Part shown: in pieces, positions 136-63,292 of the stretch | How the letters are laid out: each line of letters begins with the position of its first letter | Position numbering within the stretch: the first letter of the stretch is position 1 | Virus record (IMG/VR): IMGVR_UViG_3300037312_000757 | DNA length: 64,000 nt | Reading direction: 5' to 3' (one strand) | DNA from: a virus | Taxonomy: Duplodnaviria > Heunggongvirae > Uroviricota > Caudoviricetes | Position numbers and translations under genes: made by a program | Notes under the pieces: model-generated | What the model saw: the letters and a program-made list of their open reading frames with translations, nothing else | Database searches by the model: none | Told to the model about the DNA's origin: nothing

Positions 136-735
136 TCAGTCAGCTACTTGCAGACCGAACATCTTAACGAAGTCTTCCAGGCCCTTCTCAAAGCCTTCAC
201 CGACCGTCTTGAACGTCCAGTGACCATCGTTGTTACGCTTGATCTCGGCGAATGCGACCGCCGTTGCACGACCACCGTCTTCTTCGAGGTCAAAGCGGGC
301 GAGCTCTTCGCCACCCTTGTCCATGTCCATCAAGCGAATATAAGCGCCATCAACTTGACCGAACGTTTGCTTGCGTGCCACTGCGTCATAGATCGTGACG
401 ACGAAAGCAATTTCCTTAGCATTCTCAGGCAGTGCCGACAGACTCGGAATAACGATTGTTTCGAGGTCAGTTGCAACAGCACCACCAATCTTCTGGTCGC
501 CGCTATGCTTGATGACACCACCCGGGCAGCTTTGCTGGTGATAGAAGGCAACCCATTCTTCGCCAATCGACATTTCATCCGCGCCCAGCACGAATGCCGT
601 CAAGTCCAGGTCGAAGTCGGCTTGTGTGTCGTACTTCTTACCCTTCCAGCCAATAGCCACTGCAATATTGTTAAGCAGAGAGCCGTCCTCTTTGCGAAGC
701 TTGAGGCCTTCGCCCTTCTTGAGATTCAATGCCAT
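136..735 (-). CDS. terD: TerD-domain stress / tellurite-resistance family protein
   Basis: 199-aa ORF with near full-length TerD / general-stress-protein-16U pattern (MA.SL.KG...GW......D.DLD.S.F..G.......F..Q..FG.V.GAYIRL). ATG at 733-735. Confidence 0.85.
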   Translation of the reverse strand: MALNLKKGEGLKLRKEDGSLLNNIAVAIGWKGKKYDTQADFDLDLTAFVLGADEMSIGEEWVAFYHQQSCPGGVIKHSGDQKIGGAVATDLETIVIPSLSALPENAKEIAFVVTIYDAVARKQTFGQVDGAYIRLMDMDKGGEELARFDLEEDGGRATAVAFAEIKRNNDGHWTFKTVGEGFEKGLEDFVKMFGLQVAD

Positions 736-813
736 TTTATTCTTCTTTTGTTTTTGTTAGGCGGGGAATTACACCCCGCCGTTATTCTACAACTCTACTT
801 GCCAGTTGCAACC

Positions 814-1878
814 TTAGTTGGCAACTTGCTCCGTCTTGGCTTCAGCAATAGCATCAGCCTTGTTCGCACGAATTGAATGATAACCAGCAGCAACGATCAG
901 CACCGCACCGATCAGACCAGTGAACCATTCCGGCACTTCGTACGCAGTATTCACGAACATAATCGCAGCCAGGACACCAATAGCCCAGAACGCACCGTGT
1001 TCGAGATAACGCAACGTGTTCAGCACGCCACCTTCCGTCAAGTAGATTGTGAGGCTTCGTACAAACAGCGCACCAATACCCAGACCAGCAGCGATCACGA
1101 TAAAGTTATTCGACAGTGCAAACGCACCAATCACACCGTCAAAGCTGAACGACGCGTCGACAACTTCAATGTGAACTAGTGCCGCAATACCAGCCGATGC
1201 AGCAACACCAGTCGCAACGCCGCTTGCCATAGCCGCTTCATTTTGACCTTCCATCAGCTTCTTGATACCACCAACGAGTACGTTAGCAATGATACCAACC
1301 ATCGAAGCAATCACGAATTCGAATTTGTGATCGGCCGGAACGATCAGCGAGAACAGAGCAACCACGATCAGCGTAAATGCAACTTGCGCCATTTCGATCT
1401 TGCCGAGTGCAGCCAGCTTCGTTTCGATAAAGCCGACCCAGTGTTCGTCCTTTTCTTCGTCGATGAATTGCTCAGCGAACAGCATCATCAGGAACGCACC
1501 ACCAAATCCTGCGATTGTGATGTGTGCCGATTGTACGTGCGCAGCATATTCAGCTGGCTTTGCGATTGCGAGATGCAATGCTTCCAGCGGCGAGATCCAC
1601 GCAGTGACGCTGACGATCAAGATCGGGAACAGCAAACGCATAAACGCGACAGCGATCACCATACCCCAGACGAGGAACCACTTGCGTTGTTTCTCGTTCA
1701 TGTTTTCCAGCAGCGTTGCGTTGACTACCGCATTGTCAAACGACACACTGATTTCCAGGATGGCAAGAACGGTTGTTGCGACGAGACCACCTTCGATGCC
1801 GTAGAAAAACGCCATCAACGCGATGATGATCGGGGCGAGAAAAAGTTCCGCCTTAAAATACTTCCAAATCGTATTCAT
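814..1878 (-). CDS. TerC-family / DUF475-type integral membrane protein
   Basis: 354 aa with multiple TM helices and paired motifs (EISVSFDNAVVNA ; VDASFSFDGVIGAFAL) typical of TerC/DUF475 proteins. Adjacent to terD. Confidence 0.7.
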   Translation of the reverse strand: MNTIWKYFKAELFLAPIIIALMAFFYGIEGGLVATTVLAILEISVSFDNAVVNATLLENMNEKQRKWFLVWGMVIAVAFMRLLFPILIVSVTAWISPLEALHLAIAKPAEYAAHVQSAHITIAGFGGAFLMMLFAEQFIDEEKDEHWVGFIETKLAALGKIEMAQVAFTLIVVALFSLIVPADHKFEFVIASMVGIIANVLVGGIKKLMEGQNEAAMASGVATGVAASAGIAALVHIEVVDASFSFDGVIGAFALSNNFIVIAAGLGIGALFVRSLTIYLTEGGVLNTLRYLEHGAFWAIGVLAAIMFVNTAYEVPEWFTGLIGAVLIVAAGYHSIRANKADAIAEAKTEQVAN

Positions 1879-1896
1879 GATTTTTGATTTTTGAGA

Positions 1897-2619
1897 TTAG
1901 GCCGAAGCCGGGGCGAACTGCTTGATCCACGTGCAGAACTCTTCGTTCAGCAGCAATGCATAAAGCTGGTCGTCAGTCATGTTGTGAATGTCGGACAAAG
2001 CCGCAAACCCAACATTTGGTTCCGACTCTGCGAGATTCTGCAGGGTTTGGAAACGTTCACTACCAATGCCAAGGAACATCCAGTAAATGTTCTTGTCACG
2101 GGTGCTTGCGATCAGTTGCGCAGTGCGCTCAACGTCGCTATAGTCGTTTTCGCCGTCAGTGTTGAACATGACGAACATAGGCAGATTCGGATCAGTTGCG
2201 GCAACTTCTTTCTTGCCAAACAGTCGGCCAAGCAAACCTGGCTTGCTGCCACCATCCGGGTGATCGTATGCGTTGATCACGGCTTCGATCGCGCGTGAGT
2301 AAACAGTACCGCCACCGTGGAAGTGCGGAATGAGTTCCTTCTGAACATACGTGCCAAATGTGTCTGGCGTTGCATCAGCGAGCTTCTTAGCTGATGTGTT
2401 GAAGATGAACTGCTCGAGGCTTTGGTTGTCGTCGAAACGCACGGCAACAGCCAACGAACGGTCGACGGTTTCTTGCATCACACCGCTTTGATAAAGACCG
2501 CTCATGGAACCTGAGCCATCATTTACCATCACTACGCGTGCGATGAGGTTTTCTGGGACGTTGAACTTCTTGAGGCGGAGACCTACCAGTTCGGTCTTCT
2601 TCTGTAATGAAAGAGCCAC
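1897..2619 (-). CDS. von Willebrand factor A (vWA) domain protein, TerY-like
   Basis: 240 aa with MIDAS motif DGSGSM and later TDGE. GTG start preceded by AAGGA. Third gene of the ter-like cluster. Confidence 0.65.
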   Translation of the reverse strand: MALSLQKKTELVGLRLKKFNVPENLIARVVMVNDGSGSMSGLYQSGVMQETVDRSLAVAVRFDDNQSLEQFIFNTSAKKLADATPDTFGTYVQKELIPHFHGGGTVYSRAIEAVINAYDHPDGGSKPGLLGRLFGKKEVAATDPNLPMFVMFNTDGENDYSDVERTAQLIASTRDKNIYWMFLGIGSERFQTLQNLAESEPNVGFAALSDIHNMTDDQLYALLLNEEFCTWIKQFAPASA

Positions 2620-9929: not shown

Positions 9930-10571
9930 TTATGCCAACAGTGGCAACATTTCCTTGAACGTAGCTTTCACTCGGGAAAGGCTGCCGCTCTTCAGCGCTA
10001 TTGTAAAGCCAAGCTCAGTTTTGGCGTTCGACACCAAGCCATGTTCGCTGAACAGCTCTGCTTTCAGTTTCGCATTCTTTGCATCAAGAGCAGCTTGACG
10101 AACAGCCTTCGCTTGAGCTGCCCGTTCTTCCTTCAAAATAGTCTGTTCGAGATTATGAATAACGCTCTTCTCAAACTTCTCAAACGCATATGTGATGTCG
10201 CCATCGACAGTTGCCTTTGTAACCATAGTATGTGTGTTATAGTGATTGAACGAATAATTGTAGCGTTCGTAATGCTTCTCACCACGATAGCCAACACGCG
10301 TCGATTGCAGCATGATTTGATTGTTATTTGATTCCGTAATCTCCATCACCACATTGATCGTCTTGTCGTTGTGCTTAATGATGAATCGGAACGAACATTC
10401 CGCATGATTAGCCCATTTAGAATCTGGTTGAGAAAGTCTGAATGAACCATTAGGACGGATCACCGCTAACTTGCTGGCAAACGTCTTCTGATTGTCGCTG
10501 AGCGGTTTTTCTGTATTAGCCAGAATAGCCTGAAGCAGGCTCTGTTCTGCTGAGGTCGAGTTTGTTGTCAT
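9930..10571 (-). CDS. hypothetical protein, paralog family D
   Basis: 213 aa. N-terminus (MTTNSTSAEQSLLQAILAN) and C-terminus (..MLPLLA) resemble genes at 11343 and 12070. AT-rich module. Confidence 0.6.
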   Translation of the reverse strand: MTTNSTSAEQSLLQAILANTEKPLSDNQKTFASKLAVIRPNGSFRLSQPDSKWANHAECSFRFIIKHNDKTINVVMEITESNNNQIMLQSTRVGYRGEKHYERYNYSFNHYNTHTMVTKATVDGDITYAFEKFEKSVIHNLEQTILKEERAAQAKAVRQAALDAKNAKLKAELFSEHGLVSNAKTELGFTIALKSGSLSRVKATFKEMLPLLA

Positions 10572-11329
10572 TGTTGTTCTCGTTTTGCGTATGGATCACC
10601 TTTCAGGAACACTGCCAACTTTGCAAAGTCTCGTTCGATTTCACGACGTGACTTATTGTTCCAGTAGCTATCCGACTCCTTGGCCATCTCGTATGCTTTT
10701 TCTGTCACATCATTGATTTCAAAACCATGATTGTTAATGATTTCCTGCATTGTTTTGATCTCACGCAGCTTTTTTCGTTCTTCGCTCTTGCGCTCTGATT
10801 CTTCTAGGCGCTCAGTGCGAATGATTTCTGCGGCCGTCTGCTGAGCACATTGCTTTAGCATCACTTCGGGGTTAAGATCAGAGGCATTGTCATATCGCAC
10901 AGCCACCATGGCGTTACCGTGATAGAAATGATCAGATGTGGAATTGAAGTGAATCTTACCACCCTTGAACCCCGCACGAATACAGCTAATGTTGAGCTCC
11001 TTAACGATCGTTATCACTGAACCACGTCCCCAATTTTCGTCATCTTCGTCATCATCCCAGTAATCGTCATACAGACATGTTTTGATGTCGATCAGAACGG
11101 TCGCGTTGATGATTTTGGTTTCTTTGGTTTTCTTGTCGTAGTATTCAAGCTTGGTAATGAATTCCGCCTGCATGAGTTCATCAGTATCGTAATCAGGCAC
11201 ATCATTGATACGAATTGTACCTTCTCGTTTCTCTGCGATTTGCTGCAGAACACGCTTCAGGTCGCCATTAACCGGGTGTTGAGCCGTTAGAACAGCGGTG
11301 AGCAACTCACCTTCAAGTTTCTTTCCCAT
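10568..11329 (-). CDS. hypothetical protein (acidic DDYWDDDEDDE tract)
   Basis: 253-aa ORF overlapping its neighbours by 4 nt. AT-rich module. Confidence 0.6.
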   Translation of the reverse strand: MGKKLEGELLTAVLTAQHPVNGDLKRVLQQIAEKREGTIRINDVPDYDTDELMQAEFITKLEYYDKKTKETKIINATVLIDIKTCLYDDYWDDDEDDENWGRGSVITIVKELNISCIRAGFKGGKIHFNSTSDHFYHGNAMVAVRYDNASDLNPEVMLKQCAQQTAAEIIRTERLEESERKSEERKKLREIKTMQEIINNHGFEINDVTEKAYEMAKESDSYWNNKSRREIERDFAKLAVFLKGDPYAKREQQ

Positions 11330-11342
11330 TTTCTTCTTGTTA

Positions 11343-12002
11343 TTATTTGATTAAGTCAATCAACCTGCAGAACAGTTCGCGTTGATCATCAACGGTACCG
11401 TCATGTTCGTAATCCGAAACTATTTGGAGAATGTTTCGCGTCTTCTCGGTGTCTTCGAGATTGAAATGCTTCAACCACGCTTTGTAGCGACGTTGCATGA
11501 TCTTCAAATACTCAATCTCACGTTCAGCTGCTTGATGTTCTTGGAACTTGATTTTGTTGTATAGATCGAAGACTTCTTTCTCGAACATCTCAAACATTTC
11601 TTGGATATCAGCTTTATCAAGGTGATCAATACAATCAATATAACTGGAGATTTCTTCGTGAATATATCGCCCGTTACTTTTTGGATTGTACTTCTTCGAA
11701 CCAATTTTGATATAGTCGAGTTCTATGCCTATATCAGCTTCGACAGTTCCGTCGCTGTTGGGATATTGCCACACATTAAGAACCGCATGAATAGCCATGC
11801 TAATTCCGTTGTGCTTGGCGAGATATCTCACATTGACGTTTTCGTATGAACCGTCCCAGTCAGGGTCGTCGATTGAAATAAGCTCAAACGTCGCATTGCG
11901 AAGTTTTATGACTCGATTGAGTGTGGGGTAAAGGTAAACGTTGCCTGGCTCTGGATTCGACAGAATCAGAGCCAGCAGAGCTGTTTCATACTTGGTTGCC
12001 AT
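11343..12002 (-). CDS. hypothetical protein, paralog family D
   Basis: 219 aa. MATKYETALLALILSNPEPGN N-terminus is family-like. Confidence 0.6.
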   Translation of the reverse strand: MATKYETALLALILSNPEPGNVYLYPTLNRVIKLRNATFELISIDDPDWDGSYENVNVRYLAKHNGISMAIHAVLNVWQYPNSDGTVEADIGIELDYIKIGSKKYNPKSNGRYIHEEISSYIDCIDHLDKADIQEMFEMFEKEVFDLYNKIKFQEHQAAEREIEYLKIMQRRYKAWLKHFNLEDTEKTRNILQIVSDYEHDGTVDDQRELFCRLIDLIK

Positions 12003-12069
12003 TTCTAGTTGTTATTAATAGGCGTTGTGACTAAAATTCTAGCACAACGGTGGCAACTAAGTGTGAACG

Positions 12070-12738
12070 TTACTTCAGAAGTGGTAAGAGCTTTTGAATT
12101 GCGGTGCTGATACGCGCCAACGTACCGAGTGGGGCCACTGCTTCGTATAATGCATCAAACGTTGTATTGGGTGCCGTGATGTTGAAAAGCTGGTAGACCT
12201 CGGATTTTACATCGTCGCGCTTTTCTTGCAATTCCGCACGTCGTTCAGCGGTCAGCTTTTCCCGCTCTTCCCTGCGAGTACGCTCTTCTTCTATACGGCT
12301 TGCGACAACCCGCAGTTCGTAGTCACGCAGTTCGACCATCAACAACCTGAGGGCTTCGTCGAATGTTCGTTCACCGTTGACGAAGTAATATTGTGCAAGT
12401 GTACGCCGATCATATGGCGCATAGATCTTCTCAGACACATATCCGTATTTGATGAGTCTGATTTCGAGCCGATCGCCATTTACATATGGAAGGACTTCCA
12501 TTTTAACACGTCGGCCAGCTTCGGTTTCTGCAAAATATGAAAAATGAACGATCGGATACTTGTCATTGTCCGAATCTTTGCCATTGACAATTGGGATGAA
12601 TCGACCGTTTGGATATTCTTCTGCAAACTTGCGATAGACCGCTTTCACGTCACCCCGAGTTCCAACATTCATGGTGTTGAAGAGATCAGGATAAGTGAGA
12701 ATCAGCTTGACGAATGATTGTTCGGCCTTGCTCGTCAT
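12070..12738 (-). CDS. hypothetical protein, paralog family D (coiled-coil C-terminus)
   Basis: 222 aa. MTSKAEQSFVKLILTYPDLFN ... IQKLLPLLK. Confidence 0.6.
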   Translation of the reverse strand: MTSKAEQSFVKLILTYPDLFNTMNVGTRGDVKAVYRKFAEEYPNGRFIPIVNGKDSDNDKYPIVHFSYFAETEAGRRVKMEVLPYVNGDRLEIRLIKYGYVSEKIYAPYDRRTLAQYYFVNGERTFDEALRLLMVELRDYELRVVASRIEEERTRREEREKLTAERRAELQEKRDDVKSEVYQLFNITAPNTTFDALYEAVAPLGTLARISTAIQKLLPLLK

Positions 12739-16593: not shown

Positions 16594-17178
16594 TTACTTG
16601 AAAACTGCTACTGATGCCTTTGTGTTCAGACCGACATTATTTTCAGAATGAACCATTTCGTTATCCTTGAACTGCGCAATGTTCAGAACAGTGTACATAC
16701 CTTTTGATGCATGAGTTTGGTCGTGGAATGCTTCATATGTTTCGCCAACTTTAGCACCAACACCACCACCCGCTGACACTACAAAGAGAATGCGATTGCG
16801 ACCATTCTCTTCTTTACCGCAAATATAAACAGTGCCGCTACCCCACTCTGAAATAGCTTCAGGCAACGTTACCACACGCTTGCCATACAGTTCCATAGTA
16901 GCTGGTAGAATGATCCAACCACGTGACATACGGTCCCAGCTTGCTTCATCAAGCTCGTCCATGTCGTCGTCAACTAGATCACTACGTGTGAGGTCAGCTA
17001 CGCTGAAGCTATGATCGCCATCAAACATACGCACGACTGCGAAATACTTCTTTGAGTCGAAACCAACGATCTCACCAACTTCACCTTGGCCAAAGACATT
17101 ACCAGTTACCTTGACTTCGTCACCAATGTTCAACTCGTCTGGGTTGTATGATTCAGAAATGATTTCAAAATATCGCAT
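16594..17178 (-). CDS. hypothetical protein
   Basis: 194 aa. RBS GGAGAT. Terminator hairpin downstream. Confidence 0.6.
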   Translation of the reverse strand: MRYFEIISESYNPDELNIGDEVKVTGNVFGQGEVGEIVGFDSKKYFAVVRMFDGDHSFSVADLTRSDLVDDDMDELDEASWDRMSRGWIILPATMELYGKRVVTLPEAISEWGSGTVYICGKEENGRNRILFVVSAGGGVGAKVGETYEAFHDQTHASKGMYTVLNIAQFKDNEMVHSENNVGLNTKASVAVFK

Positions 17179-22405: not shown

Positions 22406-22482
22406 CTGGTCTCGGGTGTGGGATTCGAACTCACGTCACCTGGTCCCAAACCAGGCACACTAACCAGGCTGTGCTAACCCGA
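22406..22482 (-). tRNA. tRNA-Pro (anticodon UGG)
   Basis: Hand-folded cloverleaf: acceptor CTCGGGT/ACCCGAG, D-arm GCAC/GTGT, anticodon stem CCTGG/CCAGG with loop TTTGGGA, T-loop TTCGAAT, encoded CCA. Confidence 0.8.
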
Positions 22483-22611
22483 GATATGTAGTTCCGTGTT
22501 CATGGTTGTATCACAATCGTCTACAGCATACATGAACAGAGTGTCGACCCTCTTGGAACTACGGGGGTGGAAGTTCCGCATCCGCGTAGACTTGGAACTT
22601 CCGATCACTGT

Positions 22612-22623
22612 GGGGGGGGGGGG
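22612..22623. repeat. G12/C12 homopolymer tract inside the tRNA cluster spacer
   Basis: 12 consecutive G on the plus strand between tRNA-Pro and tRNA-Ala, within a highly structured ~165-nt spacer. Confidence 0.7.
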
Positions 22624-22651
22624 CCAGCTTTCGCCAGCGCCCTTAAAATCT

Positions 22652-22727
22652 TGGTGGAGGTAGACGGGATCGAACCGACGACCTTTAGCTTGCAAAGCTA
22701 CTGCTCTCCCAGCTGAGCTATACCCCC
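22652..22727 (-). tRNA. tRNA-Ala (anticodon UGC)
   Basis: GGGGGTATAGCTCAGCTGGGAGAGC... with G3:U70 Ala identity pair, anticodon loop TTTGCAA, T-loop TTCGATC, CCA. Confidence 0.8.
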
Positions 22728-22728
22728 A

Positions 22729-22804
22729 TGGTACATCCTGACGGGATCGAACCGCCGACCTTCGCCTTGTAAGGGCGTTGCTCTACCAGCTGAGCTAAGG
22801 ATGC
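22729..22804 (-). tRNA. tRNA-Val (anticodon UAC)
   Basis: GCATCCTTAGCTCAGCTGGTAGAGC..., anticodon loop CTTACAA, T-loop TTCGATC, CCA. Only 1 nt from tRNA-Ala. Confidence 0.75.
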
Positions 22805-29527: not shown

Positions 29528-29983
29528 TCATTCATCTTGTCCACGACTTTTCATCGCACGTTGCACTTCTCGCTTCACTTCGCGATCCTTGATCGCTTCG
29601 CGCTTGTCGTGCTGCTTCTTGCCCTTAGCAAGCCCGATTTCAACTTTGACCCGCCCACGATGATAGTGCAGGTTCAGTGGCACTACGGTGTAGCCAGCGG
29701 TTGCCACTTTGCCCGAGAGCTTGTCGATCTCGCTCTGATTCAGCAGAAGCTTCCTGGTGCGTACCGGATCAGGCTTGATGTGCGTGGAGGCTTCCGGCAA
29801 CGGGCTGATGTGAGAGCCCAACAGGTAGAACGCACCGTCACGGAAGAACACGTAGGCTTCCTGAAGCGAAGTACGCCCAGCGCGGATGGCTTTCACTTCC
29901 CAGCCCTCCAACACGAGACCAGCTTGAAACTTGGTCTCGATGAAGTAGTCGTGGAAAGCTTTTCGATTTTCAACGATCGACAT
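29528..29983 (-). CDS. smpB: SsrA-binding protein SmpB
   Basis: Full-length match to the SmpB pattern ([26 protein letters not shown]...L.EAY......LLG.HISP.......DP.RTRKLLL...EI.KL......GYT.VPL.L....R.KVE..LAKGKK.HDKRE) including the basic C-terminal tail. Confidence 0.85.
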
Positions 29984-31546: not shown

Positions 31547-32371
31547 TTACTTCTTGGCTACATCAATTACCTTTGCCACCCCGCCAATGTTATCGGCTTG
31601 TGTTTGGGCCGCGTTGGCGTTGCGCCACGCGATCACTTGTTCGGGCGTGAGATGCGCAGCATCAGCAGCGGCTCGAAGTGCTTCTGCGTCAATTGACGCT
31701 TTCTGCCGAGCAAGTTCCTTGCGTTGTGCAATCAGCGCAAGTTCAGCAGCATTGCTCTCTCGCTCTGCGTTGAACGACGCAACCTTGTTCACCTGTTGCT
31801 GAATAGAATCTGGCAACTTAAAGTGTGTCGTCGTAACGTTCACTGACAAAAACGCATCAGGATAACGTTGATCCAGCAATCGTTTGAATTCAGCTGATGC
31901 TTTCTCGTCATACGCTTGTGTATTTTTGGCAATAGCAACCGGATTGTCAGTTTCAGTTACCGTTTGCATCACACCAGGTGCCCACTGTTTGATGGCCTCA
32001 AGCCCGATCGTTGTATATTCTCGATTGCTACCATCTTTGTATGTGTCAAGTTCATGTGTGGTAGAATAGAACTGTGATACATGCTGTGGATTGAGCGTAT
32101 AAGTGACAATGATATCAAGATCATCCACAGGCACGCCATCAGCATCTTTTGGTGTCAGGTTATTTACCACTACCCTTGTGGGTGTGGTGTCGACTTCGGC
32201 GAGGATCGAATCGAAGAACATCCAGTGAAATCCAGGTGTAGCGACCTCAGGGTCGATCTTGCCACCCCAATGCTTGACGATGCCAATATTACCTGATTCA
32301 ATCCGCGAGCATCCACTCATCGCAAGAATGATGGTTGCAAGCGCAGCAAAAAGTGCTAGAGTGCGTTTCAT
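31547..32371 (-). CDS. SPFH/band-7 (prohibitin/HflKC-like) lipoprotein
   Basis: Start at MKRTLALFAALATIILAMSGC (lipobox) after ACGGAGGT. GIVKHWGGKIDPEVATPGFHW... SPFH-type core plus an Ala/Glu coiled-coil tail. Confidence 0.55.
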   Translation of the reverse strand: MKRTLALFAALATIILAMSGCSRIESGNIGIVKHWGGKIDPEVATPGFHWMFFDSILAEVDTTPTRVVVNNLTPKDADGVPVDDLDIIVTYTLNPQHVSQFYSTTHELDTYKDGSNREYTTIGLEAIKQWAPGVMQTVTETDNPVAIAKNTQAYDEKASAEFKRLLDQRYPDAFLSVNVTTTHFKLPDSIQQQVNKVASFNAERESNAAELALIAQRKELARQKASIDAEALRAAADAAHLTPEQVIAWRNANAAQTQADNIGGVAKVIDVAKK

Positions 32372-32420
32372 TATACCTCCGTAGATTGTTTGGTGCGCCA
32401 TTATATATGAATGGCAAATG

Positions 32421-32447
32421 AAAAGCGGGAGTATTGCTCCCGCTTTT
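32421..32447. terminator. bidirectional intrinsic terminator
   Basis: AAAAGCGGGAGtattgCTCCCGCTTTT. Confidence 0.6.
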
Positions 32448-32459
32448 GCCACTTACCGC

Positions 32460-42662: not shown

Positions 42663-43169
42663 TTACGCCTTCTGCTGTAGTGCTTCGAGGACCAGCGGGT
42701 GAATGTACTTTGCGACTTTCACTTCCCAGTTGTCGAAGCCGACAAACCCGCGCACCGCTGATGAACTGATACGAGTTTTGTCTTCGGGCGGGATAACGAA
42801 AACATGGTCGATTTCGCTTTCGATATCCATGTTGAACCCTTGAATGTCTTTCTCGTAATCGAAATCGACACCGTTCCGAATACCGCGCATGATTGTGGTA
42901 ACGCCCAAGCGCTTCGCCACGCTGACGGTGAATTCATTTTCGACAACTACAAACTTCAGCTTTGCGAACAGTTCAGGTGTCAGAGAATCAGCTAGTACAC
43001 GACGAGCCAGGTCTTCACGCTCAACAGCATTGAACATGCCCTTCTTTGCTGGATTGTAGGCGATTGCAAAGTAGACTTCATCGAATGTCTTGCAAGCTCG
43101 TTCGACCATCCACTCATGGCCACGGGTGATGGGGTCGAATGACCCCGTTGTCATACCAATCGTGTACAT
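42663..43169 (-). CDS. coaD: phosphopantetheine adenylyltransferase (CoaD/PPAT)
   Basis: TGSFDPITRGHEWMVERA ... RGIRNGVDFDYE ... ISSSAVRGF aligns along the full length of CoaD (T/HxGH motif and ISSS motif). TAATG-coupled to coaE. Confidence 0.8.
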   Translation of the reverse strand: MYTIGMTTGSFDPITRGHEWMVERACKTFDEVYFAIAYNPAKKGMFNAVEREDLARRVLADSLTPELFAKLKFVVVENEFTVSVAKRLGVTTIMRGIRNGVDFDYEKDIQGFNMDIESEIDHVFVIPPEDKTRISSSAVRGFVGFDNWEVKVAKYIHPLVLEALQQKA

Positions 43170-44404
43170 TAGATCCAACGCCCCCATTTCTTGATGATGT
43201 TGTTTACGTTGCGCTTCGCGTTGTCCTCGAATTGCGAGAAGTGCGGCGAATGGAAAATCCGTTCACGATCAGCAAACGTCTTCATTGCCACGACTCGACC
43301 ACGAGCAAATGTGATGACGTCGTATTGGTCTTTGAATTCTTGATACACCGCTTCGTCGAACGCATTAGCTTCTGCTTCAGTTCCGCCGAGCATCATCAAG
43401 TCCACGTCCAAGAACAGTTCGCAATCAGCTTTCAGTTCAGGATTCGAAAGCAAGTATGGAGACGTGATCGCATGGCCTTTAGTCGCCATGATGAATTCGG
43501 CAACCGTGGCCAGTGTCGGTATACCAGCTTCAATCTCGAAGCCCAGTGCTTCTGGCAGATGCTCCCTGAACTGTTCCATCATGAACTTGACACTCCACGC
43601 TTCGTTGAAGGCGTACAGGTCCTTGTAAGCGCTGTAGACAGCGTCGTGATAGATGATTGCCAGTCCCGCAATGCCCGGATAGTTAAACTTTTCGACGTTG
43701 TTCATGAACCAGCGGTACATCTGGCGTGGATGATCAGCGTTATGCCAGTGCCGACTCGTATCGAAATACTGCTTCATTGCATTGTCGAACAGAACACCAG
43801 CTTCCTTTTCGTGACCGTAGAATGCACCCTGGAAAAACAAACGCAGATCTTGCAGCGAGATACGATCAGCAATGCGCTTCGCCTCGTCCTCCAGATCCTC
43901 GAGAGAAATGTTGGTATCAACCGTGTCGTCGGCCATTGCGATCTTGACACGCGTGCTCAGTTGCGCTGCGCGGATGCGTTCGATCTTCTCCTGCGTGAAG
44001 CCATCTCGCGCCATCACACGCTGCATCTGCACGTCATCTGCGCAGTGACACGTGATGACAAAGTCATACTTGCCGCTCTTGCCCATTTCGTACAGAAGCG
44101 GGAACTCCATCACCAGATGTTTCTTGTAGTCGTAGTTCGCCAGCTTCCAACGCATTGTGTCCTTGGTCAGGTCTTCCAACCACAGACGATCGGCCGAGTT
44201 GTTGAACACGATGTCCGACACCTTCTTGCGGTCGGACGTGCCGAAGCGATTCTCGAGATCAAGCTTGAACGCTTTGTCGTTGTAGAGGTCGCGAACCATG
44301 TCGTCGATGCTTGCGTGCTCGTAGTTTGCCGCCAAGTGTTTCAGCAGCAACTTCGTGAATGTTGTCTTGCCACAGCCGATGTTGCCAGTGATGGCTACTC
44401 GCAT
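43169..44404 (-). CDS. coaE: dephospho-CoA kinase (CoaE) fused to a C-terminal HD-domain phosphohydrolase
   Basis: N-terminal MRVAITGNIGCGKTT P-loop and CoaE-like blocks (IDDMVRDL, FPLLYE, DDTVDTN). C-terminal HWHNADHP...IIYHDAVY HD motif. RBS GGGAGA. Confidence 0.8.
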   Translation of the reverse strand: MRVAITGNIGCGKTTFTKLLLKHLAANYEHASIDDMVRDLYNDKAFKLDLENRFGTSDRKKVSDIVFNNSADRLWLEDLTKDTMRWKLANYDYKKHLVMEFPLLYEMGKSGKYDFVITCHCADDVQMQRVMARDGFTQEKIERIRAAQLSTRVKIAMADDTVDTNISLEDLEDEAKRIADRISLQDLRLFFQGAFYGHEKEAGVLFDNAMKQYFDTSRHWHNADHPRQMYRWFMNNVEKFNYPGIAGLAIIYHDAVYSAYKDLYAFNEAWSVKFMMEQFREHLPEALGFEIEAGIPTLATVAEFIMATKGHAITSPYLLSNPELKADCELFLDVDLMMLGGTEAEANAFDEAVYQEFKDQYDVITFARGRVVAMKTFADRERIFHSPHFSQFEDNAKRNVNNIIKKWGRWI

Positions 44405-44473
44405 GAATGGTCTCCCGTAAATGAGGCCATTCTATATTCGTTTGTGACTACCGTAAAGTCTATCAACAAATTG

Positions 44474-44499
44474 AAAAGGCTCCCAGTTGGGAGCCTTTT
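44474..44499. terminator. bidirectional intrinsic terminator
   Basis: AAAAGGCTCCCagttGGGAGCCTTTT. Confidence 0.6.
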
Positions 44500-44501
44500 C
44501 A

Positions 44502-45071
44502 TTACCACGGAAAATCAGCCTTCTTGATCTTGACTAACCGACCATCAGGGTGCCACCAAACGACACCTTCAATCGGCTTATCACGCAGATATTCCATGAT
44601 GCCATCAAACGTGCGTGGGCAGTCTTCCAAGATATCCTTGCCGTGCGGGACAAGAATGTGCTCGGTCAAGCCTTCCGGATTAGCACCGTGCCGCGTCCCA
44701 ATCTTGGGGCCACAAGCCTCGTAAGTGCCATCAGGAATGCCATCAGCATACTTACCCTTCAAAGCCCATTCAACAGCTTCGCGAATCCACTTCGAATCCG
44801 GACCATCAGTAGGTACCCAGCCTGGCCAGTGACCAGACTTGGGATCCGGGTTAGGTTGGGCAGGGATGAAGTCCACGGGAGGGGTTCTCCCAGCCTTAGC
44901 GTCGTAACGCTTAAAGACTCGACCATCCTTTACCAACACGGCCACGCCATCCCACTTACGAGTGGCGTAACCTTCCCCAGAAACAACCCATTCAGTTCCG
45001 GGCGTAACTTCGTCACGAACCTTACGGTCACCATCGTAGTTACGAACAAACAACGAAACGGTCTTCTTCAT
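44502..45071 (-). CDS. minimal nucleotidyltransferase of the ligase superfamily (KxDG), RNA/DNA-ligase-like
   Basis: Start MKKTVSLF after AAGGAG. Motif I RKWDG, motif IV EGVVWW, motif V LVKIKK. Confidence 0.5.
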   Translation of the reverse strand: MKKTVSLFVRNYDGDRKVRDEVTPGTEWVVSGEGYATRKWDGVAVLVKDGRVFKRYDAKAGRTPPVDFIPAQPNPDPKSGHWPGWVPTDGPDSKWIREAVEWALKGKYADGIPDGTYEACGPKIGTRHGANPEGLTEHILVPHGKDILEDCPRTFDGIMEYLRDKPIEGVVWWHPDGRLVKIKKADFPW

Positions 45072-45193
45072 GTACTGCTCCTTAAAAGTGATGAGATAGT
45101 TTTCGAGTCCCATCAACGCCACCTTTAAGGCTTACTGCAACTTCCTTTACTGCTAAGCCATATTGTATATATGGCTCATACTACAGTCAAGCA

Positions 45194-48327: not shown

Positions 48328-48693
48328 TTACTTGTCAGCGTGGCGAGTGATGAAATTCACTCGCATGTGCTCAGGTGCAAAATACTTGTTCACCATGTCA
48401 ATCACAGTTTGCGTGTTGTATGACTTGCACGAAAAAACGTCGAAGTAACTTGTTCCGTCAAGTTCCATGAAGTGGCCACAGATGTTTGATGTTGTGATGA
48501 GCTGCATCAAGCTATAACCCTGCTTTGGATCGCCTGGGAGTAGATACTCGATGATAGGCTCGCCGTGCGCTTCCATATCGATAGCGACGACCAACTCTTT
48601 GATGAAGTTGTAGATTGCTTCCTTGCTGGCAATGCCGTTTTCGACCTTGCAACCAGCACAGTCGAGCATAAGGTGGTAACCGAAATATTTCAT
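48328..48693 (-). CDS. S-adenosylmethionine decarboxylase-like (SpeH/pyruvoyl-enzyme fold) protein
   Basis: Start MKYFGYH. G.HL..D..GC ... GYSLMQLITTSNICGHF ... DVFSC parallels the bacterial SpeH layout. Confidence 0.55.
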   Translation of the reverse strand: MKYFGYHLMLDCAGCKVENGIASKEAIYNFIKELVVAIDMEAHGEPIIEYLLPGDPKQGYSLMQLITTSNICGHFMELDGTSYFDVFSCKSYNTQTVIDMVNKYFAPEHMRVNFITRHADK

Positions 48694-48740
48694 AATAACC
48701 CCGTTCAAATTAAGGAACGTTTTAATTCGTTCGGGGTTAT
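48694..48740 (-). promoter_or_regulatory. stem-loop sequestering the RBS of the AdoMetDC-like gene
   Basis: ATAACCCCG...(28-nt loop with inner GAACG/CGTTC stem)...CGGGGTTAT. The 3' arm is the GGGG Shine-Dalgarno located 6 nt before the ATG. Confidence 0.4.
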
Positions 48741-48772: not shown

Positions 48773-49213
48773 CTATTTTGCCATGCATTCGAGGTCTTTC
48801 TGCGTGACCGTCAGCGCAAGCGCTATCTTGAAGTGATCGACTGCACCAGCTAGGAATGCAGTCAGCTTCATCTTTTCGCCAGCAATGTACACATGATTCT
48901 GGCCGCCGCCTGCCGTTCCGCCTTCATACTTCTCCCAGCGGAACAGCGGCTTGCCATTCGGCGCAAGTTCAGCCGTTGTTGCGTTGAACGTGGTAAGACG
49001 AACATGATGATCCGACCAGGAATTGTAAGCAGGCGAACCTTCATACGTGCTACCAACCACACGCGCCAGCTTCAGATCGAATTGCGCGAGAATCGCCTTG
49101 ATCCTCTGATAGTTGTCGGTTTGCTTGTGAAAGTTGTGCGTTTCGGGATCACAATCGAACGAACCGAGCGGAATACCATTATCACGGCTGGGTTTCAGAT
49201 TGAAGCGCGACAT
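48773..49213 (-). CDS. hypothetical protein, paralog family C
   Basis: Start MSRFNLK. ...FRWEKYEGG...HVYIAGEKM...KIALALT shared with 49625..50065. Confidence 0.55.
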   Translation of the reverse strand: MSRFNLKPSRDNGIPLGSFDCDPETHNFHKQTDNYQRIKAILAQFDLKLARVVGSTYEGSPAYNSWSDHHVRLTTFNATTAELAPNGKPLFRWEKYEGGTAGGGQNHVYIAGEKMKLTAFLAGAVDHFKIALALTVTQKDLECMAK

Positions 49214-49286
49214 CGCTTTCTCCTTCAAGTTGTTTACCATGTTCAAATGATAAGGTCAAATGAACATGGTGTCAACTCCTTTTTAC

Positions 49287-49624: not shown

Positions 49625-50065
49625 TCAAGATACTTTCTTCTTGCGTTGCTGCCGTTCTTTTTCCGTATCAGTCAGCAGTATTGCCAGCTTGAACGGATCA
49701 CGTTCGGCCAAAGCAATGAATTCCGAAGTACGCAACATCTGGCCCGACACATACACGCGGTTTTGTGCGCCGCGTGGGTTGTTGCCTTCGTATTTCTCCC
49801 AGATGAACTGAGGGTAGTTGACATCCCCTGCGATGACAACAAACCGCATTTGACGCAGTTGTTGATCGTCAGGTTGACGCGGGCACGCGCTCATGAGCGT
49901 GAGCTCGATGCCGTGAAGCCCTAGCACCTCTTTGAGCTTTTGGTAGTTGTTGAGTTGCTGCTTGAAGTTGAAGCGTTCCGGGTGGCCGAAGAAATGGCCC
50001 TTCGGAACCATGATTGAGCGGCGTCCGCCGATAGGCAAACGGTCGGGGAACGTGTTCTCACGCAT
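49625..50065 (-). CDS. hypothetical protein, paralog family C
   Basis: Start MRENTFPD after AAGGAG. ...FIWEKYEGNN...RVYVSGQML...KLAILLT. Confidence 0.55.
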   Translation of the reverse strand: MRENTFPDRLPIGGRRSIMVPKGHFFGHPERFNFKQQLNNYQKLKEVLGLHGIELTLMSACPRQPDDQQLRQMRFVVIAGDVNYPQFIWEKYEGNNPRGAQNRVYVSGQMLRTSEFIALAERDPFKLAILLTDTEKERQQRKKKVS

Positions 50066-50119
50066 GCAAGCTCCTTGTGAAATTATCGCCTTAGATGATA
50101 ATTTCACATGGTGTACAAA

Positions 50120-50899
50120 TCAACTCTTGTACGTGAGGTTTGTGTAGATGTCAGCGTCGCACAGTTCTTGCCCAACGCTTTTGAATACATGCACCATACG
50201 ACCAGCAGCACGAAGTTGATCTGCGATTTCATCAACTCTTTCGTGTACGATAGCACCGTTAGAAGTGAGTAGAGGGTTGAGTGTGATGGACCACTTACGA
50301 TCGCCCCATGCAGCTAAACCTGCTATGTCATCTTCACTGTCGTTCAGACCAGCTTGAAGCACATAGTTGATACGGATATTGCAGAATTTTTCTTCACACA
50401 GTGAAACATAGGTCGCCAAGTATAATGCATGCGGTGTATCACACATGATGTTTGCACGCTTCTCTAAGTCGGCCGCGTGTAGAGATATCTGCAATTCTGT
50501 GAGGTACTGATGTGTCGGAAGCTCTTTGATACGCCAGGGTGCAAGCCCGCTAGTTGAGAAGCGTAGGCCCCCTATAGGCAAGCCAGAACGCGATAATTGT
50601 TCAACTACCTTAGTCACATTGGGAATGTTTGCCGTGACTTCACCTTCACCCGTGAACGAAAGCAGAAACGGTTCACCAGGAGCGTGGGCCGTTACAAGAC
50701 GAACCATTTCATCAGCCGTCAAGTTACGTCCAAATGGTTGCTCTGATGAAACGCAAAACTTACATTTCACCGGGCAACCGATCTGGGTGGGAATACTAAG
50801 AATCCGCTGTCCCGTCGTATTGATCGACAATACCGGCACTTCATATGCTTTCTTGTCTATCAATCGCTTGACTGGGATATGGCGAAGGTCAACATTCAC
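50120..50899 (-). CDS. radical SAM methyltransferase of the RlmN/Cfr family (RNA adenine C-methyltransferase-like)
   Basis: CPVKCKFC (CX3CX2C) and successive RlmN/Cfr blocks: FTGEGE (cf. MGMGEP), FSTSG, ELQISLHAADLEKR (cf. ALAISLHAPNDEIR), INYVLQAGLNDSEDDIAGLA. Lacks the RlmN N-terminal extension. GTG start. Confidence 0.75.
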   Translation of the reverse strand: MNVDLRHIPVKRLIDKKAYEVPVLSINTTGQRILSIPTQIGCPVKCKFCVSSEQPFGRNLTADEMVRLVTAHAPGEPFLLSFTGEGEVTANIPNVTKVVEQLSRSGLPIGGLRFSTSGLAPWRIKELPTHQYLTELQISLHAADLEKRANIMCDTPHALYLATYVSLCEEKFCNIRINYVLQAGLNDSEDDIAGLAAWGDRKWSITLNPLLTSNGAIVHERVDEIADQLRAAGRMVHVFKSVGQELCDADIYTNLTYKS

Positions 50900-51078
50900 T
50901 TGGCTGGCCCTGACGAACAGAACAAGGTTACAATGCCGTCCTTTTCACGTGTGACGATCGACTGTGCTGACTTCACCGCCTGCATGCAAACTTCCATGCT
51001 GGGCTCGGGATAGGTACGATCATACGTGCCATAGCCAGGGGAGGTGATCACGTACACCAAGTATGCGGCGGCCAGCAT
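50896..51078 (-). CDS. hypothetical small protein
   Basis: Start MLAAAYL (GGGAAG upstream). TAATG-coupled. Confidence 0.4.
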   Translation of the reverse strand: MLAAAYLVYVITSPGYGTYDRTYPEPSMEVCMQAVKSAQSIVTREKDGIVTLFCSSGPAK

Positions 51079-51251
51079 TACAGCTTCCCGTCGATCTTTG
51101 CGATCGCGTCGTCTTGCGTATGAACGCCGAGATGCTTGTAGATCGCATGCAGGTTGCGATGATTCTTCCCGAACCATTTGTCGCACTTCATGCCAACGAA
51201 AAAACCGACAGCCAGGATTGCGAGCTCACTGAGACCCAGAAACAAAAACAT
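51078..51251 (-). CDS. small membrane protein (57 aa)
   Basis: MFLFLGLSELAILAVGFFVG... with AGAGGAAAT RBS. Replaces the out-of-frame track ORF 50896..51186. Confidence 0.4.
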   Translation of the reverse strand: MFLFLGLSELAILAVGFFVGMKCDKWFGKNHRNLHAIYKHLGVHTQDDAIAKIDGKL

Positions 51252-62746: not shown

Positions 62747-63292
62747 ATGCTCTCCTTTTCGTACCAATATAAGAATAATAAAATGGATTGGGATCAGTAT
62801 TTTATCAGCATGTGCTACTTCGTAGCCATGAAAAGCAAAGACCCGTCAACAAAAGTTGGCTGCGTTATCGTGGGGGAAGATAACGAAGTAGTCTCAACAG
62901 GCTTCAACAGTTTCCCCCGCTTGCTCAACGACAATATCCCAGAACGCGCCCATAGACCCCTCAAGTACATGTTCATTGAGCATGCCGAGCGGAATGCGAT
63001 CGCAAACGCCGCGCGTATTGGAGCGTCAACCAAAGACTGCAAGATGTATATGCTCTGGTACCCTTGCGTTGAGTGTGCGCGAATGGTTATCCAGAGCGGT
63101 ATCAAGGAAGTGATCATTCACCAAGAGTTTCCCGGCAACGATCAGCATGTCGGCCACTGGCAAGAAAGCATGGTTGTAGGCCAGCAAATGCTGCAAGAAT
63201 GCGGAGTCACGATTCGTTGGTGGTCGGGCGAAGCAATCACGCCAGTCGCAACATATCAGGGAAATTCGTTCCCACTCAACTCCCTCAAGTAA
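62747..63292 (+). CDS. dCMP (deoxycytidylate) deaminase
   Basis: HAERNAI ... PCVECARMV zinc-binding CDA motifs with dCMP-deaminase-type spacing. RBS AAAGGAGAG. Confidence 0.85.
   Translation: MLSFSYQYKNNKMDWDQYFISMCYFVAMKSKDPSTKVGCVIVGEDNEVVSTGFNSFPRLLNDNIPERAHRPLKYMFIEHAERNAIANAARIGASTKDCKMYMLWYPCVECARMVIQSGIKEVIIHQEFPGNDQHVGHWQESMVVGQQMLQECGVTIRWWSGEAITPVATYQGNSFPLNSLK

Follow-up and report, generated by a model that had tools for sequence, protein, structure and literature searches.

Can a radical S-adenosylmethionine (SAM) protein encoded by a member of the Caudoviricetes methylate RNA in the manner of RlmN and Cfr, and could it spread Cfr-like antibiotic resistance? The question is raised by an open reading frame (ORF) in a 64,000-nucleotide stretch of viral DNA (IMG/VR record IMGVR_UViG_3300037312_000757), which as a whole is called the window here; an initial annotation, made from the letters alone, had identified the product as an RlmN/Cfr-family methyltransferase. 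RlmN is a dual-specificity C2-methyltransferase of 23S rRNA A2503 and tRNA A37 and a class A radical-SAM methylase (PDB 3rfa, 5hr7, 6fz6). Cfr is the 23S rRNA A2503 C8-methyltransferase that gives resistance to phenicols, lincosamides, oxazolidinones, pleuromutilins and streptogramin A (PhLOPSA; PDB 9p0p). The window protein is a radical-SAM enzyme, and its homology to the RlmN/Cfr core is secure, these two being its nearest characterized relatives by sequence and fold. The residues that carry methyl transfer are replaced in it. With a probability of about 0.6, we read it as a functional [4Fe-4S]/SAM radical enzyme with a core of RlmN/Cfr lineage, belonging to a distinct clade whose methyl-transfer residues appear to have been exchanged; the narrower statement, that it derives from RlmN but is not an RlmN/Cfr-type methylase, we hold to be very likely.

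The ORF reads for 259 aa on the minus strand from a GTG start at 50899 down to 50120; the plus-strand translation of the same interval is riddled with stops. The GTG overlaps the stop codon of the upstream ORF (AAGTGA), and the N-terminal ends of its homologues support that position. This is not a chance ORF: a 523,837-bp JGI contig carries an identical protein, and proteins of 240–290 aa make up a conserved family around it; since the relatives are of the same size, the short length is a conserved property and not a truncation. Only 41 residues stand ahead of the cluster motif, versus 124 in Escherichia coli RlmN and 111 in Cfr, and the N-terminal accessory domain described for the RlmN/Cfr family (PMC2836569) is absent. 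The initial annotation had correctly called the protein shorter than RlmN and devoid of an N-terminal extension, and the motifs that it quoted are all found (QIGCPVKCKFC with its core CPVKCKFC, ISLHAADLEKR, LQISLHAADLEKR, RFSTSG with its core FSTSG, and INYVLQAGLNDSEDDIAGLA). The Pfam Radical_SAM domain (PF04055) is matched at 37.9 bits, where its gathering score is 29.5. The cysteine triad of the cluster motif is invariant, both in 67 of 67 distinct sequences of the clade described below and in all homologue classes.

Searches with the single sequence gave RlmN (TIGR00048, E = 2.9e-19) and then Cfr (TIGR04432, E = 4.5e-12) as the best NCBIfam models, and RlmN (6fz6, 3.3e-11) as the best PDB sequence match. 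A profile of 35 clade members matched RlmN at 1.4e-32 and Cfr at 2.3e-25 in the PDB, with the next solved radical-SAM protein at 1.7e-6. We built an AlphaFold2 model on the clade alignment (predicted local distance difference test score, 94.3; predicted template modelling score, 0.91). The ten best Foldseek matches of this model in the PDB are all RlmN (E = 1e-14 to 3e-12; template modelling (TM) score, 0.73–0.77), and the next ones, pyruvate formate-lyase (PFL) activase, NifB, MoaA and viperin, come only at 3e-7 or worse. The curated cutoffs of equivalog models (TIGR00048, TIGR04432, NF000424 and PRK models) are nevertheless missed: 69.3 bits against 290 for RlmN, 45.9 against 550 for Cfr, and further scores of 44.4 against 530 and 38.6 against 633.

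The C-terminal cysteine of these enzymes (RlmN Cys355, Cfr Cys338) is the obligate methyl carrier, which takes a methyl group from SAM before the 5′-deoxyadenosyl radical attacks it (PMC3702613). Cfr C338A cannot accept the methyl group, yet it still binds SAM (PMC3702613). Each of the substitutions C105A, C338A and E91A alone abolishes Cfr-mediated resistance, and C105A also abolishes methylation by Cfr (PMC2836569). We aligned the window protein with authentic E. coli K-12 RlmN, plasmid Cfr and 163 homologues from two large protein searches, and tabulated the residues at these sites for 41 representatives of the window clade and for 50 short and 60 full-length homologues that retain the cysteines.

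None of the three sites holds the expected residue in the window protein (Table 1). The resolving cysteine, seven residues ahead of the cluster motif, is replaced by Ser35 in the context ILSIPTQIGC; in the clade this site is Ser in 34 and Asn in 4 of the 41 representatives, whereas it is Cys throughout the Cys-retaining classes (50/50 and 60/60). Where Pro22 stands, the clade has Pro (26), Gly (7) or Ser (3), and the Cys-retaining classes have Glu (42/50 and 60/60, together 102/110). The methyl-carrying cysteine is retained in 110 of 110 Cys-retaining homologues, whereas the clade has Tyr (33) or Phe (4) among its 41. Tyr252 lies in a clade motif, G-x-x-I-x-N-x-x-Y-x-x-L-T-Y, that takes the place of G-x-D-I-x-A-A-C-G-Q-L; we refer to the group as the Ser/Tyr clade. 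Among 31 full-length proteins of this type from independently retrieved metagenomic loci, the Cys118 site is Ser or Asn in all and the Cys355 site is Tyr in 28 and Phe in two, with one alignment gap. A cysteine anywhere in the last 35 residues is found in only 10 of 67 distinct clade sequences, and in the window protein the sole conceivable alternative methyl acceptor would be Cys247. Other changes in the pocket (Cfr numbering) are Met155 to Thr, Arg327 to Phe or Tyr, and a variable residue at Gly339; C112, C116, C119, F118, S212 and H214 are kept, and the SAM contacts of the window protein (F48, S139 and H141) are invariant. The second conserved cysteine pair expected in the initial annotation, whose loss it had named beforehand as speaking against its reading, is thus absent. 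On its sequences, a clade in which all three methyl-cycle residues are replaced should be incapable of the methyl-cysteine ping-pong reaction.

A neighbour-joining tree of 158 sequences over 264 columns, which is distance-based and unrooted, separates 40 of the 41 cysteine-less sequences, together with an intermediate (P0026, Cys…Tyr), from the rest by a split with 97/100 bootstrap support. The window protein therefore falls apart from the RlmN and Cfr clades with which it was to be compared, an outcome that the initial annotation had likewise named as contrary to its reading. As the tree and the residues read, the Ser/Tyr clade is monophyletic, distinct from RlmN/Cfr and without the methyl-transfer residues. 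Eight marks of family membership were checked. The window protein has those of the radical-SAM superfamily, and the RlmN core fold with its SAM-binding residues; it lacks the other six, namely the methyl-carrier Cys, the resolving Cys, the essential Glu, the N-terminal domain of about 100 residues, the curated scores and the tree placement. Of the original assignment, then, the radical-SAM part and the nearness to RlmN/Cfr in sequence and fold stand, but with its catalytic residues replaced the protein is placed outside the methyltransferase family.

The likeness to RlmN itself extends, beyond the fold, to the CX3CX2C motif within xxSxQxGCxxxCxFC, to the motifs GxGE, STSG, SLHA..R and NDS, and to the SAM-contact residues F131, S233 and H235 (RlmN numbering). 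It is offset by the missing N-terminal domain, the low score, the separate clade and six exchanges: E105 to Pro, Cys118 to Ser, Met176 to Thr, Arg344 to Phe, Cys355 to Tyr and Gly356 to Thr. Cfr shares the core fold and the cluster motif; it differs in its N-terminal lobe, missing here, in E91, C105 and C338, and in its C8-specificity residue Q329, which is Ser or Lys in the window clade. Closer in outline are the 50 short Cys-retaining RlmN-like representatives (CC_short, 250–320 aa), which resemble the window protein in length, likewise have no N-terminal domain and are also found on phage contigs. Unlike it, they keep E105, Cys118, Met176 and the AACGQL motif with Cys355, and fall outside the Ser/Tyr clade; they are plausible methylases. 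One short RlmN-like protein that keeps Cys118, Cys355 and a GGCGQL motif is encoded by the uncultured huge phage LR756500 (462 kb; locus L043, 3896-4786). A third RlmN-derived form, annotated as hypothetical, occurs in two cultured phages, Kehishuvirus ‘tikkala’ (WEU69814; L041, 3824-4612) and Vibrio phage D479 (VPHD479_0341; L042, 3836-4681). These phage proteins also have neither the N-terminal domain nor the resolving Cys, but they carry Gly at the Cys118 site and end before the C-terminal segment, so that both Cys355 and the Tyr motif are missing; they are ~30% identical to the window protein over partial length.

The Ser/Tyr clade was found in 39 loci, with GC contents of 19–67% and on contigs of up to 1.46 Mb. 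Some of these are clearly cellular (FlgC, gyrase, ATP synthase, YidC), and others are phage-like, of huge-phage type. Across hosts of 19–67% GC the remodelled active site is the same, the new Tyr, Thr83 and Asn178 being invariant. Deposited phages gave no nucleotide match, and protein matches of at most 32% identity, all to other RlmN-derived types. Scanning IMG/VR for patterns from the family alignment gave no match, and of two scans of GTDB species representatives one gave none and the other only ordinary RlmN carrying E/C/C; divergent members can escape pattern scans of this kind. A literature search returned no report of a cysteine-less RlmN offshoot or of a phage RlmN, and the clade is apparently undescribed so far.

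Several individual members or their loci may be recorded here. The longest of note, P0022 (486 aa), has a C-terminal extension without a Pfam domain. Two members lie on contigs of more than 1 Mb, L008 (Ga0308158_10000004, 1.46 Mb) and L018 (Ga0265780_10000003, 1.12 Mb), where the local genes are almost all unannotated. A 24% GC contig with a clade member, L026, has at 16938-17013 a tRNA gene with a CTA anticodon (an amber suppressor, called tRNA-Pyl by ARAGORN), which could mean stop-codon recoding in that element.

The genomic setting bears on what the gene does. Two loci, L052 and L053, share synteny with the window across 11 genes or more, and in them a homologue of the neighbouring 96-aa ORF is followed directly by a homologue of the unannotated gene W160. 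At their junction, the stop flank of the upstream ORF is joined straight to the sequence at the radical-SAM stop codon. Exactly absent there, the radical-SAM gene is thus a presence/absence cassette of one gene. We considered whether it forms a system with W160, the W160 paralogue W157 and the S-adenosylmethionine (AdoMet) decarboxylase-fold gene, and rejected this because the latter three live without it in L050–L054 and the gene is a precise indel. Only 7 clusters make up the W160 family, and elsewhere its members have an AdoMet_dc or arginase-family gene next to them and no radical-SAM gene; this suggests that W160, W157 and the decarboxylase-fold gene may form a small polyamine-type module with an uncharacterized component.

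Table 1. Features of the radical-SAM gene and its neighbours in the window
Feature	Position	Strand	Remarks
Radical-SAM ORF	50120..50899	-	259 aa, GTG start; RlmN/Cfr-derived catalytic core, N-terminal accessory domain absent
CX3CX2C [4Fe-4S] motif CPVKCKFC	50753..50776	-	Cys42, Cys46, Cys49; Phe48 in the SAM/5′-deoxyadenosine pocket
Pro22 (CCG)	50834..50836	-	Site of essential Glu, RlmN E105 / Cfr E91
Ser35 (AGT)	50795..50797	-	Site of resolving cysteine, RlmN Cys118 / Cfr Cys105
Cys247	50159..50161	-	Non-conserved; five residues before Tyr252; in only 7/67 clade sequences
Tyr252 (TAC)	50144..50146	-	Site of methyl-carrying cysteine, RlmN Cys355 / Cfr Cys338
Single-gene presence/absence boundary	50120..50899	.	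tblastn synteny, junction sequence and flank alignment versus L052/L053
96-aa ORF	50896-51186	-	Immediate neighbour, same strand as radical-SAM gene
W160, unannotated ORF	49625-50107	-	Paralogue of W157, 32% identical
W157, unannotated ORF	48773-49246	-	Paralogue of W160, 32% identical
AdoMet-decarboxylase-fold gene	48328-48708	-	84% identical to AdoMet_dc gene beside a W160 homologue elsewhere
RNA ligase	44502-45122	-	phrog_14301, E = 1.9e-82
CoaE-like kinase fused to phosphohydrolase-type (HD) C-terminal half	43169-44404	-	
Cytidylyltransferase-like gene	42663-43187	-	

No conserved partner gene emerged from the clade loci: all-versus-all clustering of 847 ORFs from the 39 loci gave no universal neighbour, no Pfam family had more than 3 members among 138 flanking proteins scanned as a batch, and the PADLOC defence-system models matched neither the window protein nor two clade members. 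RNA-repair genes recur loosely. In L003 and L004 a T4-type RNA ligase lies upstream and a PolyA_pol/CCA-type nucleotidyltransferase downstream of the clade gene; the PolyA_pol cluster is present in 6 of 39 loci, L001 has a Pnkp-like fusion and the window has an RNA ligase. The window ligase belongs to a run of nucleotide and RNA metabolism genes (42663-45122, minus strand: cytidylyltransferase-like, CoaE-HD fusion, RNA ligase). In three loci (L007, 2906-3430; L008, 8912-9952; L037, 8972-9935), the clade gene is directly preceded on its own strand by tandem paralogous ORFs of ~156 aa that encode zinc-ribbon proteins; their identification with the W157/W160 pair was rejected, as phmmer finds no relation. 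SPFH/Band_7 genes adjoin RlmN-derived genes in L001 (6071-7810; Ser/Tyr clade) and L041 (2278-3495; Kehishuvirus, the third form), and the window has a Band_7 gene (31547-32452, minus strand) 18 kb from the radical-SAM gene; the adjacency may be coincidence.

What reaction, then, would such a protein carry out? A true adenine C-methyltransferase of RlmN/Cfr type, acting on 23S A2503 (C2 or C8) or tRNA A37 with possible Cfr-like resistance, would fit the RlmN and Cfr models and structures that are the best matches, and also the JGI automatic name of the identical protein, 23S rRNA (adenine2503-C2)-methyltransferase. We give it almost no credence, with the methyl-carrier Cys, the resolving Cys and the essential Glu all replaced in protein and clade, each such loss alone abolishing Cfr resistance and C338A taking no methyl; the scores are 4- to 12-fold under the curated cutoffs, the N-terminal domain is absent and the clade is separate. 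The idea that the phage copy methylates A2503 or A37 accordingly finds no support (E/C/C has become P/S/Y, at 69/290 and 46/550 bits), nor does that of a potential spread of Cfr-like resistance, the equivalents of E91, C105 and C338 each being replaced; that the window protein acts as a Cfr-like antibiotic-resistance gene is very unlikely. A crippled methylase might still harm the host, if, in the sequences that have it, Cys247 were methylated and the enzyme then, for want of the resolving Cys and the Glu, became covalently trapped on its RNA target as a suicide effector against host translation. Cys247 lies in the same loop as the aligned Cys355 site, five residues before it, and an engineered C118A RlmN has been captured crosslinked to tRNA in two structures (PDB 5hr6/5hr7) that are both among the top fold matches. 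Such crosslinking is extremely unlikely, however: with Cys247 in just 7 of 67 sequences it is not the conserved mechanism of the clade, whose conserved residue is Tyr, and the AACGQL context, Gly356 and the N-terminal RNA-docking domain are all missing.

Reactions away from RNA have also to be weighed. The loss of the RNA-docking domain, a gene that stands alone without a partner and the remodelling of the former adenine-site pocket would suit a radical-SAM enzyme with a small molecule or a nucleotide in free form as its substrate, whether viperin-like or other, with the gene serving in auxiliary metabolism or counter-defence of the phage and no RNA polymer involved. Viperins are among the distant fold matches, and one bacterial clade member weakly matches the prokaryotic viperins (pVip; 6e-7, 27 bits). 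We consider this improbable, as the window protein itself matches no PADLOC or viperin model, RlmN beats viperin by ~9 orders of magnitude in fold E-value, and its neighbourhood has no conserved partner gene such as a nucleotide kinase. Nor is it at all likely that the protein is a protein-radical activase like the PFL-activating enzyme, which would employ the 5′-deoxyadenosyl radical to place a radical on, or to modify, some other protein or peptide: among solved folds that enzyme ranks second (3e-7, TM about 0.6) and it is similar in size (~245 aa), and small unannotated ORFs flank the clade gene in many loci, but the NCBIfam PFLA model (TIGR02493) gives 13 bits against a cutoff of 231.75, no glycyl-radical-enzyme gene or conserved peptide gene was seen in any clade neighbourhood, and the adjacent W160/W157 genes occur elsewhere without the radical-SAM gene. 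As for a SAM sink, which would bind SAM or cleave it uncoupledly and so blunt SAM-dependent host defences, or a decayed, non-catalytic remnant, the accessory single-gene indel two genes from the AdoMet-decarboxylase-fold gene is in keeping with it, as is the SAM binding of the Cfr C338A mutant. It too is very unlikely: the same remodelled site (Tyr, Thr83, Asn178) over hosts of such varied GC points to selection on a specific reaction, the decarboxylase gene belongs to a different module found without the radical-SAM gene, and loss of the methyl-Cys in Cfr suppresses SAM cleavage and does not promote it.

We therefore keep to the reading given at the outset, a radical enzyme of RlmN/Cfr descent that would no longer transfer methyl groups. 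Its catalytic core would come from the RlmN/Cfr lineage, the N-terminal RNA-docking domain having been lost and the whole methyl-transfer cycle swapped out (Glu to Pro/Gly, resolving Cys to Ser/Asn, methyl-carrier Cys to Tyr/Phe). Since the window protein retains its [4Fe-4S] triad and its SAM contacts, it probably still cleaves SAM to the 5′-deoxyadenosyl radical. With no methyl-cysteine to receive it, this radical may act directly on a substrate in the former adenine pocket, and the near-invariant Tyr, at the former place of the methyl-Cys next to the SAM 5′-carbon, may relay or donate a hydrogen atom. Spore photoproduct lyase uses a Cys/Tyr relay, and the relay suggested here is modelled on it. 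The ancestry and the loose proximity to RNA-repair genes make a nucleotide, in RNA or free, our best guess for the substrate. Direct abstraction, Tyr relay and nucleotide substrate taken jointly are tentative, and rather less than an even bet.

Several points weigh against parts of this reading. The equivalences of Ser35 and Tyr252 come from sequence alignment; given the flexibility of the C-terminal loop in RlmN/Cfr, the register may be off by one or two residues, and this loop and the N-terminal strand with Pro22 are the least secure regions of the alignment. Whatever the register of the loop, no conserved Cys is found anywhere in the clade tail. The Tyr relay is an analogy to spore photoproduct lyase. 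Support for an RNA or nucleotide substrate is weak: the window protein has no RNA-docking N-terminal domain, its isoelectric point of 6.2 is mildly acidic (clade median, 8.5), and there is no linkage to tRNA genes, with only 2 of 30 loci having any tRNA in the flanks. The RNA-repair neighbours represent only some three independent lineages and could simply reflect the accessory-gene regions of large phages. The most far-reaching version, a neofunctionalized RlmN scaffold for non-methylating modification or cleavage of RNA nucleotides by the 5′-deoxyadenosyl radical with a Tyr relay, moving as a portable single-gene cassette of huge phages and some uncultured bacteria that would alter the translation apparatus, is in our view unlikely as a whole.

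The window probably belongs to a phage of very large size. Its closely packed small ORFs on the same strand, its tRNAs and RNA ligase, and several matches to PHROG families are consistent with the gene lying in a phage, as the initial annotation had it, although no structural hallmark gene was seen within the window. The three tRNA genes that it counted are present (Pro-UGG, Ala-UGC and Val-UAC, at 22407-22804), ~27 kb from the radical-SAM gene. Among other contents of the window, a full-length SmpB homologue (29528-29983, minus strand; PF01668, E = 4.1e-57) is encoded, and ARAGORN finds no tmRNA gene within the window. A tellurite-resistance-like cluster at 136-2619 (minus strand) consists of TerD (E = 4.6e-49) and a vWA-TerF-like protein (1e-37), with a phrog_30252 membrane protein between them. 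In the ORF list, four consecutive ORFs of 213–253 aa at 9930-12738 (minus strand) have similar N-termini (…LLxAILxNxE/PxP…) and may be a tandem paralogue array. A dCMP deaminase gene (62747-63292; phrog_174, E = 2.6e-39) lies on the plus strand, opposite to most window genes.

By the residue evidence, the JGI pipeline name of the identical protein is wrong, and a resistance screen could flag the protein as Cfr-like; on the same evidence it is not to be counted as a phage-borne reservoir of Cfr. The short Cys-retaining RlmN-like genes of phages (e.g. that of LR756500) are better candidates for phage-encoded activity of RlmN/Cfr type. The Ser/Tyr clade is a credible neofunctionalized subfamily of a well-known scaffold and offers a natural experiment, in which an RlmN core appears to have kept its cluster and SAM site while the methyl-Cys became a near-invariant Tyr and the resolving Cys a Ser. 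The product of this clade would show how class A methylase scaffolds get repurposed.

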